Shown here: one piece after another, positions 37,106 through 59,892 of the stretch
How the letters are laid out: every line of letters starts with the position of its first letter
Numbering within the stretch: position 1 is the stretch's first letter
Source of the DNA: Vermamoeba vermiformis
Lineage: Eukaryota
Length of the DNA: 64,000 nt
Assembly: GCA_045837725.1 (NCBI GenBank)
Contig: JBEWZL010000044.1
Location: forward strand, 248,001 to 312,000
Reading direction: 5' to 3'
The notes under the pieces: generated by a model
The model's database searches: none
Told to the model about the DNA's origin: nothing
What the model saw: the letters and a program-made list of their open reading frames with translations, nothing else
Program-made: the position numbers and the translations under genes

Positions 37106-40100
37106 TTATTGATTGAGAATCGCGCCGCCGTTGACTGCAGGGTTATGCAAGTTGAGCAGTGCTTGAATTCGCTTCAAGTACGCTGTGTTTCGCAGAGCAG
37201 GCAAGTGCGGACGAATGCGTGCAGCCAATTGCACGTACTCTTTGGGAGCCTTGGTGGCCGATTCAGACAAGCAAGTTTGAACCACATAGTTGCCATAGGG
37301 ATCCTGAAGCAAGGCGACAAGAGGCTCAGGCATGCCATTGGCTGATTTGGCCAAGTGCGCGGGCATAACAGTGACGGAGACCAGCTCTTTGGCCATGTAT
37401 TGAACCGTGCGTGCATTACCAACCTTGAAGCACTTCTCGATGACATTGGAGCTGAACTTCTGTGTGGCCAAGTAGAACAGTTGGCCCAACAAGTTCATCA
37501 CTAGCTTCTCACAAATCTCTTCGAGGTTCAAGTCCAAAATGTATTGCACGACGTAGTTGCCAAAAGCGTCTTGTACCAGGCTCAGCGAGTTGCGCGAGAT
37601 TTCGTTCATCAACTGCAACTTTTGTTGCAAAGTCGCGTGATCGATGCAACGCTGCATGACACAGCAGCCGTGGCGATGAGTTGCAACTTGAACGCAGTGA
37701 CGAGCCACGGCGTCGTAGATGAATTGGTTGTCATTAGGCTCCATCTTCTGCAAGCTCTTTTGAATGACGTGGTTGCCGTTCAAATCTTGAATGAGCTCAA
37801 CGACGCTGCCCTTGAGTGATTCACGCACGACGCGCACTTCTTCGGGGCTGTCCAAGAGCTCGATCATCTTCTGTACAGCACGAGTGCCGTGCATGTTCTT
37901 AGAAATGGAGACCAAATCCTTTGACACGCCCTTGACAATGGCAATGCGTTGATCAGTTGTGCAGTGCTCGATCAACTTCTGACACAAGTAGTTTCCAAAA
38001 GGATCGCTCATCAAGTCCACAATGTGCTCGACAACTTCAGTAAAGATGATTTGTGTTGCTGCGGCATCATCTTCGTCCAATCGCTTTTGCAAGAATCTGC
38101 AACCGTGTTGATCTTTGCACATGCTGTAGATGTTGCCAATGCACTCCTTCAAAGTCATATTGGTGTAACGGCTCGGTGAAGTGATCGGTACACGAGGAGC
38201 AGGAGCAGGGCGCTGAATCTGTTGCTGTGCTGGTTGCTGTTGCTTTGAAGCAATGGAGCTTGGATCCGACACTTGATCCACGTGCAAGAAATTGCAACGC
38301 TCACCGCGGCTGCAAAATCCTTGAGTGTAGTAGCGGCAAACCTGAGTGGTGTTTGGTGGTGCTTGAGTAGGGATGATCTTCTGCATAGTACCGCCTGGTG
38401 TAGTCGGGATGACCATGTTGACCATGCCGGTGGGGCTCGTTGAAACGCCATTCAACTGCTGCATATTCAACACTGGCACTGGCATAGAGTTCGAAGCAGA
38501 TGGTGCGCCGGTGATAGAGATCTTTGACTGAGTTTGACCGACCAACGTGCTTTGAACGCGTTGAGTTTGGACGCCGCGAGGTGACACGCGACCGTTGACG
38601 CGGTTGAGTTGATCTTCCTCTGAGAAGATTGGCTCTTCTTCCTTCGGTGACACCAAAAAGCTCAGTTGATGAGTCTTGCCAGCCAACGACAACAAATCGT
38701 CTGTGGATGAAGACAAATTCGACTCAGAGTTGATGGCTACTTTGCCCAAGTTCTTATTGCGAACTGTTGCACGTAATTAGTACGAGAACGTCACGATGCA
38801 TCAATTAAACACTTACTCTTCGACAGGTCTTGATTGCTCTGCTTGTTGCCAGCAAGGGGAGTCCAGATCTGCTCTTGGTTCTTCTTCTTGATCTTAATGG
38901 GAATGGGCTTGGTTCCGTTGACTTGAAGCTTGTTGGCCGAGGCAGAGGTGGGCTGTGGTGCGGCTACTTGAGGAGGCACGAGCATTGAACCACGAGGCGA
39001 CACTGCCCCTGAAGGCAAGTGTTGTGCATTTCTTGGCATCAAACCAGGAGGAGCGTGCACTTGAGGAGCCATCATTTGCATTTGAGGCACTTGCATGTGA
39101 GGTGGCATTTGAGGAGTAGGACGCTTAGGACTCGTGGGCATGTGAGTCATCGGCGAGTATTGGAACACCATGCCCTGCGACATGTTGTGCGACGCGTTCG
39201 GATCGAAATAAACTCCTTGCTCTGGCACACCATTGGGCAGCGGGCTCGTGCTCATACCAGGCGGGCGTTGCATTGGTGGCATAGCCATAGGATTCGGCAT
39301 GGCGTGTTGTGGTGCGGGAATAAATGTATTGGCTGAGTTCAAGAACGAATTTCCACCGGGTTGAAGGATCGACGCAGATTGGGATTTAGGGATGTGAACA
39401 TTGCTGTTGAGCGCTGCCATTGAAGGTTGCTGTACTCCAAATTGGCCATTTTGATACTGGTGGTTCATTTGAAGTTCAGACTTCGACACGCGCAACTGTT
39501 CCATGGGGGAGATCTGGATCGTGTTAGATGGCGTTACGGGGACGTTAGAAAATTAGCTAATAACCTACCAATAGTAGAGGTGATTGTTCCATAGGTGGGG
39601 GTAGTGTAGAGTGGCCATTATCTTGTCTGTAGGTTTGATAAAAGCGCTCGTAGTTCTCATCGCATCTCACATCCGTTCCGAACAGCCGGTAGTACTCTAC
39701 AAGCGACGATTAGTTACTATAAATAACATCGAAGAGATTGGTATGATTTTAATAAGCATCATAGTGATACGACTCAAAATTTCGGAATAAATTGAGATCT
39801 GAGATGCAGATGAATTCACCCGTAATTGATTTTATGGCAAATTAAAGGATACCAAAAGATTAAACTGCATGAATTAAATGTTCCACGGGAAGGATTGAAT
39901 TAATAAGTTGTTGGGTACAGATGGCTGTCCCAAAACGTAAAAACTACCAGAAGATTCTTCTAAGCATAAATTACAAGTAATTTAACGAAGGATTAATTAT
40001 TTGTGGCATAGATAATATAAATATACTTAATTTTACGTTAATAAAACCATCGTAATTACCTGCTGGTTCGAATCCGTCTGTGTTGAAAGCGAAAAGAGAC

Positions 40101-55918: not shown

Positions 55919-57602
55919 ATGAAATTAATTTCGTTGTTGTTCGTTTGCGCGACAGTATTTTGTCTCGGTAAGTAGATCGCTTTAAACTCAGCAACAAATA
56001 CTAATGAATTGAAAATAGGATATTGTTTCGATATCATGGGCCCAATAGATAGTGTTATTAGCCCTGGCTATTTATTAGACGGAGATACCATTGACGTCGT
56101 TAAGATCGGAACCACTCAATACTTCAGTGCGTTTGTAGCGGCTGGAGAAAAGGTAAGAATATTACATATATTTCGTAAAGCTAAAGTTTAATGTTGTAGG
56201 ATTGGAAATTATACGGAACGACGACCGACATTGAGATGGGAGACTCCGTTACGACGGAGATCTTGACGTTGGATGGCACTGATAGCCGAAGTTTTGTGAA
56301 GACAACAGTGCTAGACACTGACTTAGTATTGATATCGTGGTATAGGAAAAGTGCTCCTGCGAATCTTGAGTCACTTGTGTATCAAGTACCAACCGGGCAA
56401 AGTAAGTTTGGGATGGACCAAAAATAGAACCAGATCTAATCATGCATGCAGTCACAAAGGACCTTGAAACGCTCTATGCATTCCCATTGGACTATAATTT
56501 GGCTTCATATCACATCGCACCAATCTCGAAGTACGTTTACGCTATTACGGTTCAAGCAGCCATTGCTCGAGCTAGACGGTCCTTAGTGCCCGACACTAAT
56601 GGCCTCCTCGTTGTGAACAAGAACGGCACGGTATATATTGAGCAACAGTACTACGATGACGAATGGGTGAGTTATAATGTATATTATAACTGTGCGTGAT
56701 AGTTGTTGACACGTGCCTTCACAGCGACCATTCGGCATCGAGTTGTTCTCACCAACCTTCTCTGTCATGTCACTGAACCTCTCTTGTGGCTGTGTTCACG
56801 TGCAGTCCTTCAACTTGCAAGGCTTTTTCTTAGGTAAGCCATTCTCTTTATGAAAAACAGTGCGATCTGACCCGGCGCTTTAGGCGAGAAGAATGTCTTC
56901 AATGTGTCTGGCGAGCCAACCAACATTATGCAAGTGCGCACAGGTGACACGAGTTTGTTCCTTTATACTGTTGCCAATAAGCTGTTAGCTACACCCTACG
57001 ACTTGATCCAACAATCACCCGGAGCTGAAACGGAAATTATGTCGTTCTCAAGCTCTACAGAGTTCATTCACGTAGGCGCTGCTTCACTAGCTCCTGGCGT
57101 GGTGGCTGTGGCTTATGATACCCTCTACCTTCTTCGCTCAGTCAATGCCGCGTTCAGAACGACAGTCTATGATGTGGAGACACGCGACCAACGCATGAAC
57201 GAGTACGTCAGATTGGTGATAAATACACTGTGCATATCTAACGTTAGTGGCAGCGTCGTGATGGAGAGCAACTCGCTGTCAGGCTACTTTGGAGTAGCAG
57301 GTGTGGACGAGTACACGCACGTGGTCGCGTTCTTCCGCTGCAACGACACAGTGAGTGTTGGTGCCTGTCCCGGCCACATGGTCGTGTCGCACATGATCTT
57401 TCGACAGCCCACTCCACCTGTCGACATGCCGCCCTTGCCCGAGACACCTGATGTTGGCACAGGCACCAGACCTATTGCCGTTCAAGTACCTGTGGCGGCT
57501 AACAGACCTCAAGCGAATAACAACGTCACCAGTGCTAGTGCTGCACTCACAGCTGTTGGTGCTTTGACTCTGTTGGCCAGCGTATTCTCAAGCGTGTTGT
57601 AA
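55919..57602 (+). CDS. secreted beta-rich surface protein, probably GPI-anchored
   Basis: Signal MKLISLLFVCATVFCL; Pro/Thr stalk; C-terminal SASAALTAVGALTLLASVFSSVL. Confidence 0.7.
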
Positions 57603-57799
57603 ATATAATAAAGATATAATAAGACAAATACGCGTGCGTGCTTTAATTTACTTTATTTACGATAGAATCTTGAATAACAAGAGCGCTACTCTGTACTTAC
57701 CTCCGCTGAACTGCTTGCGATCGTTTTGAGATCAGATCTGTTAATAGCGTATTAGATACTGTACAATTAATAGGATTTAAATAAAAATAAATGATTTAA

Positions 57800-57891
57800 G
57801 AGCTATGATCAGAATTTGTTTCCGTTTCATCGATGGCGGAAACCATCTAAAACAAGAGGTGTCAGATATTTAGCTATCATCATTATAGCTC
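57800..57891 (-). ncRNA. box C/D snoRNA (guide to LSU rRNA, SNORD60/snR48-like region)
   Basis: Terminal stem GAGCTAT/ATAGCTC; box C ATGATGA (57883-57877); box D CTGA (57812-57809); internal TCTGACACCTCTTG; C'-like CGATGA. Confidence 0.85.
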
Positions 57892-58080
57892 CGCGTAATG
57901 TTGGTTATACAAAACTTGGTAAGGCGGGTTGCCTAACTTACCAAAAACGGCGGGATCTGAGTTGATCAGAAGATCAATCTGATGCGAAAAATACCGAAAA
58001 ATCTGAAAAAAACAGGATTGATTAGATATTGATAATAAAGATATGCAACGCAAATATAATGTATTTAGAATTATTTTAGA

Positions 58081-58217
58081 GATTGTATGAGCAACATATT
58101 CCGCTTTTTTCATTTTTTGGTTCAAAAGCGAGTTGTCAATTGCTCGAATACTGTATGCACAATATACGGTGTCACACTCCATGAAAAGCGAAGAGGACAT
58201 AGCATGAGTGTGCAATA
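58081..58217 (-). ncRNA. box H/ACA snoRNA
   Basis: Hairpin TGCACA/TGTGCA, H box ACAGTA (58154-58149), hairpin GAGCAA..CGCTTTT/AAAAGCG..TTGCTC, ACA (58086-58084). Both pockets are 14-15 nt from the boxes. Confidence 0.85.
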
Positions 58218-58431
58218 GGCAAAAGATTTTACACCTTGCGGATGCAGTTGAGACTTACGTTAGTTGCCTTGGCTCAAGTGCACGATCGCATTGTTTGTGG
58301 AGTTCTTATGAATGAGATTGATAGTAATAACAAGTTCAAAAAGCAAAAAGGGCGGCACACGACCCTGACTTAATCGCACCAGGAAAAATCTGGACACAAG
58401 CGTGACTTAATCGCAAACACAATGCTTGGCT

Positions 58432-59892
58432 TTATTCAGAACTCTTCGGCCTCAGTCTGAACTTGCACGCGATCGATAGATGATCTGAGCCTAGGTAGTC
58501 GTTCGGCAGTGCTGTTTGAATGCTCAGACTTTTCTCGTCAGGTATCGAGAGCAGTGCTTCAGGCTCGAGTTCAAAGTCATCGTCTTGACACCAACGAGAC
58601 TCGAGTAAACAGATGTAGTCCAATGTGAGACGAGCAATGGGCGTGTAGGTCGTGTAGGGAGGTTCAATCTTGGGCTTGTCGTGATACTTGGCTGTCTGAC
58701 ACGCACTCGGATCCACCTCAAAATAGTTCCTGTACATGCTATTTAACACGGGCAGCTGTTCGAGTGACTTGTACAACATCTCGACTTTGTCTAATCGCTC
58801 GGCAATCTCTTCATCTGTCTGCGGCTTTGGGATCACTTCAGCATCTAGTACCTCGCGTGAAGGCTGCACCAGATGGTTGATGTACCGCGAGTAGTGATTG
58901 GCCGGTGTTAAAAACGCGTGTTTGTCAATGCGAGCAAAGTTACGGCTGGTCAACAGGGCGTAGTCTGTTCCGTGAGGCCAAAAGTTGAGGTCCCCGCCTA
59001 TTATAACGGGGTACCGCTTGTCGAACTTGTTCTTGAATGCAATCACTTTGTATAATAAGTGCTCGATTTGTCGTAATCGGACGTAGCTGTATCGGGGATT
59101 CCAAAACAGATGCGTTGTGCTGCAAATTACGCCTTGATCACTAAAGTGCAAAAAGTGAGTTAGCAAATGGATACTCTATTAATTATATAGGGCTATTAGG
59201 TACCTATTAACGTCTTGTAATAGAATAATCTGTGCGATGTTGTCGCGAGTCAATTCTTCTGTCTCGACGCCCGTTGTGCCCTCAGCTAGGCTATTAAACT
59301 GAATTTCTTCGTAATCTACGCGCTTAAATCTGAAATAAAGTAATATTAGTACCATAGTTGAGTGGATACTACGAGTGGTTTGGGCTTACTTGTCTTTCCG
59401 CCAAAAGATACCACATCCGTCTTTCTTGTTACCATTCTTTTTCAGCCAAACAGAATCGTATCCTTTCTTTTCTAATTCTGGCCTCCACCACTCGTAATAG
59501 AAATCCATTTCCTAAATAGGAAACCGAAATTTAGAATTCATGGATCAAACGGACTGCAAATTAAATTATCAAAAAAAATTCAAAACAATTATTTAACCGC
59601 ATAATATTAGAGTATCAATTCATACCTGAAAGCACATGATGTCAGTCGCTAAATGCAAAATTTCGTTGAGCAGGATCTGTTTTCTTGTTCCCCATTTCAG
59701 ACAATTGCTGCTACAATAAGGATAGGTATCGCGTCGTATAAGTGTTTGGCCCAACAAATTATATGTCATAAAACTAATGCCTTGGCCTTGCTTGTCTTCG
59801 AGATCCTGCTTGCTGCTCTTTATCGGCAGGTACCTCCGAGGATACAACGACTCGAAAGTATTTTTTTGGTCTTTTTGTGTTTGATTTTCCAT
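58432..59892 (-). CDS. EEP-family nuclease, Angel/Ngl/CCR4-like
   Basis: MTYNLLGQTLIRRDTYP, DIMCFQE, TTHLFWNP, IIGGDLN, TLDYI, GSDHLSI. Confidence 0.9.

Follow-up and report, generated by a model that had tools for sequence, protein, structure and literature searches.

The minus strand of a gap between two convergent genes, lying within the 64-kb stretch of DNA analysed here (the window), carries two snoRNAs of different classes, and each of them is framed by consensus splice signals. The assignment of one as a box C/D snoRNA is well supported and can be held with little reserve; that of the other as a box H/ACA snoRNA is likewise well supported, and is put forward with a little more caution. 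To judge from the signals on either side of them and from the exons that these define, it is likely that both snoRNAs are intronic and that their setting is non-coding. The explanation favoured for the whole locus (Table 1) is an independent host transcript with a promoter of its own and one snoRNA per intron; since its splicing, promoter and processing are predicted, this fuller proposal is made tentatively, with a confidence somewhat short of even.

Table 1. Features of the proposed host locus and its surroundings, in window coordinates; all are on the minus strand
Feature	Position	Strand	Basis or remark
Last exon, Angel-like gene	58432..59139	-	Pfam PF03372 Exo_endo_phos, E 3.9e-6
Repeated 12-mer GCGATTAAGTCA	58414-58403 and 58377-58366	-	2 copies; possible promoter of an independent host
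Putative exon 1	58259..58316	-	3' end set by GTAAGT donor 58258; 58316 is the 5' end guessed in the preliminary description
Putative intron 1	58003..58258	-	256 nt; GTAAGT, TATCTAAT at 58028-58021, tttttcAG
Box H/ACA snoRNA candidate	58081..58214 (approx.)	-	5' hairpin, H box, 3' hairpin, ACA
Putative exon 2	57942..58002	-	61 nt, non-coding
Putative intron 2	57738..57941	-	204 nt; GTAAGT, TATCTAAT at 57758-57751, ttaacAG
Box C/D snoRNA, snoR1/snR48 type	57799..57892	-	C and D boxes, stem, Rfam snoR1 match, guide
Putative exon 3	57701..57737	-	37 nt, non-coding
Third GTAAGT donor	57695..57700	-	without partner

Splice signals and coding capacity of the gap

The flanking genes are convergent, as the preliminary description of this DNA had stated, with 57602 as the end of the plus-strand gene and 58432 as that of the minus-strand gene, which bears an Exo_endo_phos domain. 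This leaves a gap of 829 nt between the end of the former and the stop codon of the latter (TAA, 58434-58432). The Exo_endo_phos domain fits the label Angel-like that had been given to the minus-strand gene, and that label is kept here. The convergent neighbour (55920-57602, plus strand) has several exons, a start resembling a signal peptide and a hydrophobic, GPI-anchor-like C-terminal tail; its last 232 residues matched no Pfam family. At a greater distance in the window, a large minus-strand exon (37109-38776) encodes a protein with a CCCH zinc finger and Pumilio repeats, whose best named relatives belong to Amoebozoa (Arcella, Stereomyxa, Balamuthia and Vannella), with a JGI protein 94% identical to it; next come Schistocerca, an insect, then dictyostelids, and then early fungi.

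Direct reading of the minus strand of the gap finds the splice signals at the places first claimed for them, with GTAAGT donors at 58258, 57941 and 57700, and acceptor AG ends at 58003 (tttttcAG) and 57738 (ttaacAG). Both acceptors are preceded by the word TATCTAAT, of which the minus strand of the 64-kb window contains just these two copies, and the branch-like A of this word lies 19 nt ahead of the AG at acceptor 58003 and 14 nt ahead of it at acceptor 57738. Of the 25 GTAAGT words on the minus strand of the window, three are gathered inside 560 nt at this locus. When the 829-nt gap was subjected to 5000 dinucleotide-preserving shuffles, at least two intron-like patterns (donor...CTAAY...YAG) appeared in 14 of them, and at least three GTAAGT words in 3. 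The introns of the Angel-like gene itself are 63-115 nt long, with GTAAGC, GTATGA or GTACCT as donors and CTAAT or CTAAC as branch words. One of these (59204-59141) is seen spliced out in RNA reads of three runs and in one contig of run X1, a run 99% alike whose contigs cover 58475-59329 only, that is, the upstream coding exons. The donor, branch and acceptor words of the proposed host introns are styled like those of the introns of the Angel-like gene, and so follow the local splice grammar.

The third donor, at 57700, has no CTAAY...YAG partner inside 400 nt. The minus strand reads AATAAA (57657-57652) about 40 nt downstream of it, within the region of the convergent gene's 3' UTR; an orphan donor lying next to a poly(A) signal might direct the exon RNA to decay in the nucleus.

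The exons had been described as holding no useful ORF, and this is borne out: the form spliced in silico has a single ATG, which opens a frame of 5 codons. The stretch of about 173 nt from the Angel-like stop to donor 1 similarly has one ATG only, again with 5 codons. The unspliced minus-strand DNA does contain an open frame of 105-110 codons (57883-58215), which lends some colour to the view that the region codes for a small protein of 110 codons, or else that the features described here are coincidental. That view is scarcely credible, given that the frame starts within the H/ACA hairpin, spans both an acceptor and a donor, and matches no Pfam family at E up to 1; moreover, the conservation seen in a relative, set out below, tracks RNA structure rather than codons and ends where the snoRNAs end.

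A C/D RNA and an H/ACA RNA

The box C/D RNA is found in intron 2 where it had been placed, at 57892-57799, with a length of 94 nt including its stem. The C box AUGAUGA (57883-57877) and the D box CUGA (57812-57809) are accompanied by a terminal stem of 8 bp, and the RNA also contains a 12-nt D' guide (57866-57855), an internal hairpin and a C'-like GAUGA (57831-57827). In a scan of both strands of the window for a C box followed 45-130 nt on by a D box and closed by a terminal stem of 5 bp or more, this RNA was the sole candidate in 64 kb.

Comparison with Rfam, one of the checks that had been suggested for these RNAs, gave a divided answer. Run at gathering thresholds, it left the window without any match; run in E-value mode, it matched 57806-57890 to snoR1 (RF00345) at 34.9 bits (E 2.3e-5 for a 1-kb search, 0.0015 for the window), and this was the only Rfam match in the 64-kb window at E up to 0.5. 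Because the score of 34.9 is below the gathering score of 49, the RNA is filed as snoR1/snR48-like by target and not as a member of the curated family. It has in common with plant snoR1 (RF00345) and yeast snR48 the C and D boxes, the terminal stem and a near-identical guide, the stretch UCUGACACCUCUUGU being identical at the guide position in the snoR1 alignment; it departs from them in its second guide and its D' box, as well as in the score just given. The genes of plant snoR1 and yeast snR48 are not known to lie in introns of non-coding hosts.

The guide was compared with 105 eukaryotic LSU rRNA loci taken from metagenomes by means of a published LSU primer, 96 of which have at least 40 nt upstream; the two LSU loci that were checked against Rfam were both returned as LSU_rRNA_eukarya. 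The complement of the 12-nt guide core is present just upstream of the primer site at 67 of these 96 loci, and a further subset has a variant that would extend the guide duplex. Archaeal LSU loci have the target site in a diverged version only. The LSU 12-mer matched by the guide is presumably the SnoR1/snR48 site, an equation that relies on the snoR1-like guide and on the rRNA sequence. The C/D RNA would then be aimed at the ...AGAGGUGUCAGA... site of LSU rRNA and would correspond in function to plant snoR1 and yeast snR48. Arabidopsis SnoR1 is described as targeting 25S G2792, and probably also G2794, and as the apparent orthologue of yeast snR48, the guide for G2791 and G2793 (PMC8053127, consulted in part).

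The D' box is degenerate, and may be read either as UUUA, which gives the plant spacing, or as UAGA, which does not; the box is thus too ambiguous for the position-5 rule, by which the fifth nucleotide upstream of D or D' faces the methylated residue, to single out one residue. The guide upstream of the D box had no recurrent match among the LSU rRNA loci, and in the relative it is replaced by other sequence (loose end at 57817). A 14-mer of the guide region occurs at 120 places in genome contigs, and none of the 20 places tested against Rfam was rRNA; the last three letters of this 14-mer are unpaired with most LSU rRNAs.

Intron 1 carries the H/ACA RNA, again at the position first proposed, as an element of about 134 nt with two hairpins and both boxes. 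The H box ACAGUA (58154-58149), which fits the consensus ANANNA, lies in the hinge and the ACA (58086-58084) after the 3' hairpin. The element folds at -34.8 kcal/mol, with a z score of -2.84, and 1 of 200 shuffles folds as well. From the top of the pocket to the box there are 15 nt in the 5' hairpin (to the H box), if a 4-bp helix inside its minimum-energy fold is taken as open, and 14 nt in the 3' hairpin (to the ACA); the rule for pseudouridylation pockets, as given in a report on Neurospora, is 14-16 nt (PMC2780460). Rfam H/ACA families gave no match to this RNA at E up to 10, and a 22-mer of its core had 0 matches in metagenome contigs.

A strict bipartite scan with the pockets of the H/ACA RNA over the 105 LSU loci, which represent about the 3' two-thirds of LSU together with spacers, gave no recurrent site. 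A relaxed scan gave one, for the 3' pocket, at +169 nt from the first base of the primer site and at this same offset in 62 loci. The site is weak, with nine pairs, one mismatch and a 3-bp arm, and the scan is not above chance, 43 of 60 shuffled pockets having reached the observed count. The uridine concerned would be a known yeast pseudouridine, and this was given no weight. The 3' two-thirds of LSU rRNA, over which the scans extended, thus yielded no convincing target for the H/ACA RNA. A published eukaryotic SSU primer had no match in viral contigs, and the loci include one SSU rRNA only, which is reduced and atypical. It lies on a metagenome contig (L168, positions 1-2297) that reads from the 3' end of a eukaryotic LSU through about 110 nt into a shortened SSU rRNA, with 1449 nt for model positions 1-1716, and forms an unusually compact rDNA unit.

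Conservation of the snoRNA bodies in a relative

Three RNA-seq runs of 2026 (X21-X23), although they carry the same species label, derive from a relative that is 90-95% alike, with reads at least 99% identical amounting to 0 of 82, 0 of 89 and 0 of 44, respectively. The reads of this relative cover the coding exons of the Angel-like gene and, beyond them, two islands at 57757-57930 and 58018-58278; their depth is zero in the bins 57670-57756 (exon 3) and 57931-58017 (exon 2). Over the snoRNA bodies the reads are about 92% identical, and in the C/D RNA they extend over 57817-57892. The alignments break at 58216, which is 1-2 nt past the predicted 5' end of the H/ACA RNA, and at 57892, which is exactly the 5' end of the C/D RNA. 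Conservation in the relative is limited to the snoRNA bodies, and the exons do not align. The reads themselves continue into unlike sequence, and must therefore come from longer RNAs and not from mature snoRNAs. A second group of reads, with a loose end at 57866, diverges there into sequence with a different C box. Because the reads show these two contexts, one running to 57892 and the other diverging at 57866, the relative has at least two snoR1-like paralogues.

Laid over the H/ACA fold, the sequence of the relative has 10 substitutions and one deletion, and these leave the H box, the ACA box, all four pocket strands and the lower stems untouched. Eight of the changes are at unpaired positions, be it in apical loops, in a bulge or in the 3' tail. 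Two border the ACA box, and one disrupts a base pair adjacent to a bulge. Such a pattern of change is the one expected if the sequence encodes a working H/ACA guide. Inside the H/ACA hairpins, several read pairs of X21 and X22 connect 58118 on one strand with 58216 on the other; the simplest explanation is template switching at a stable hairpin when the libraries were prepared.

No read joins 58259 to 58002 or 57942 to 57737; as the RNA runs are of the relative, whose exons do not align, missing junction reads do not weigh against splicing. They may nonetheless be counted in favour of a different origin for the two RNAs, from an unspliced mono- or dicistronic precursor cut by endo- and exonucleases, as in plants, in yeast clusters and in Dictyostelium, the splice-like words then being unused. 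The organism is probably an amoebozoan, a placement of moderate confidence made from one protein, the CCCH/Pumilio protein mentioned above. Of the 47 C/D genes of Dictyostelium discoideum, 46 lie between genes, about half of them in clusters, according to the part of the published account drawn on here (PMC8817022). The layout of the gap makes this origin quite unlikely. Two full sets of donor, branch and acceptor bracket both RNAs exactly, and only 14 of the 5000 shuffles held as many; the word TATCTAAT is found nowhere else on the minus strand of the window. The H/ACA RNA begins 44 nt and the C/D RNA 49 nt from its donor, with 78 nt and 61 nt, respectively, from snoRNA to acceptor. Intronic snoRNAs of Neurospora mostly start 41-60 nt after their 5' splice site (PMC2780460), and on this measure the spacing is typical of intronic snoRNAs.

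The proposed host transcript and its counterparts

The best explanation of the locus is a short spliced transcript of RNA polymerase II, read from the minus strand downstream of the Angel-like gene and without coding capacity. It would start from a promoter of its own in the approximately 170 nt past the Angel-like stop codon. The only useful products of the host would sit in its introns, namely a pseudouridylation guide of the H/ACA class in the first and a methylation guide of the C/D class in the second. After splicing, the lariats would be debranched, exonucleases would trim them to the bodies protected as snoRNPs, and the exon RNA would be discarded.

For the start of such a transcript, the 12-mer GCGATTAAGTCA deserves attention: its two copies, 37 nt apart, occur nowhere else in the window and are followed by the pyrimidine run CCCTTTTTGCTTTTTG, and the pair together with the run could be a putative promoter or start region of the host. 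An AATAAA on the minus strand (58436-58431) overlaps the TAA stop codon of the Angel-like gene, so that the Angel-like mRNA could end ahead of exon 1. The distance of about 170 nt from that stop codon to donor 1 offers little room for a promoter, which counts against an independent host. As the preliminary description had already allowed, the Angel-like mRNA might itself be the host, with both introns in its 3' UTR and the output of snoRNAs tied to its transcription; once spliced, with junctions far past the stop codon, the mRNA would be a target of nonsense-mediated decay. The AATAAA on the stop codon speaks against such a 3' UTR host, as do the twice-repeated 12-mer and the pyrimidine run, read as a promoter, between the stop codon and exon 1, while the common strand, the mere 174 nt from stop codon to donor 1, and a gap sequence in which neither a TATA box nor a known upstream element is recognised all speak for it. 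The 3' UTR host is possible, though on balance it appears doubtful. The shortness of the interval, only 174 nt, leaves the own-promoter and the read-through readings both standing.

For the independent host, the outcome is accordingly mixed when set beside the non-coding gene with one snoRNA per intron that was originally proposed: both snoRNAs are upheld and so, by sequence statistics, is their placement one to an intron between canonical splice signals and non-coding exons; the splicing of the host and its independence from the Angel-like gene are predicted. In animals, non-coding hosts with a snoRNA in each intron are a classical type of gene. The comparison drawn at the outset with animal genes of the GAS5/UHG type would hold for the predicted layout: the splice signals are present and non-random, each putative intron has a single snoRNA, and the exons are non-coding.

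The claim of novelty was, on the other hand, overstated. According to the parts of the published accounts drawn on here, Neurospora crassa has five UHG-like hosts of C/D clusters, non-coding, with one snoRNA per intron and confirmed by RT-PCR (PMC2780460), and arrays of C/D RNAs in Oxytricha trifallax have been judged, from conserved 5' splice sites, to be intronic in probable non-coding carriers (PMC3177221). Nor is a host of mixed H/ACA and C/D content new as such: the introns of human SNHG12, in the description consulted, yield SNORA66, SNORA61 and SNORA16A, all of the H/ACA class, together with the C/D RNA SNORD99 (PMC6759952).

The locus resembles the UHG, GAS5 and SNHG genes in having a snoRNA in each intron, short non-coding exons, both classes of snoRNA, and exons that drift while the snoRNAs are conserved. 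Unlike them it is far smaller, about 0.6 kb with two snoRNAs, and it may form part of the upstream coding gene; splicing, a 5'TOP start and decay of the exon RNA, which are features of those hosts, would here have to be assumed. The resemblance to the UHG-like hosts of Neurospora lies in the compact genome, the short introns with canonical splice signals, the presence of short ORFs only, and the spacing of snoRNA from donor (44 and 49 nt, against 41-60 nt). The Neurospora hosts differ in that they carry C/D RNAs only and were confirmed by RT-PCR, whereas the present locus mixes H/ACA with C/D and is a predicted host. With the carriers of Oxytricha trifallax it shares a protist setting, and an intron location deduced from splice sites beside the snoRNAs, with no other conservation to draw on; the Oxytricha arrays hold 4-12 C/D snoRNAs each, in contrast to two RNAs of different classes here. 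Within the limited literature covered, no description of such hosts in Amoebozoa was found.

The locus is thus of a known kind, and leaves what is known of the mechanism unchanged. That a lineage which is probably amoebozoan uses non-coding hosts of mixed class in the GAS5/UHG style, as against the 46 of 47 C/D genes that are intergenic in Dictyostelium in the account cited above (PMC8817022), is conceivable, but must be rated rather unlikely at this stage. If it were true, dedicated non-coding hosts of snoRNAs would be either much older than one would gather from animals and fungi, or much easier to re-invent. The genome of a poorly studied protist gains two snoRNA genes that are probably unannotated, of which the C/D RNA would be a deep orthologue, by target, of yeast snR48 and plant snoR1, and the H/ACA RNA is without an Rfam family. 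The layout would place an intronic, non-coding host in a lineage of which the model species, Dictyostelium, makes very little use of introns for its snoRNAs, and the locus in this way bears on how often snoRNA genes switch between independent and intronic expression.
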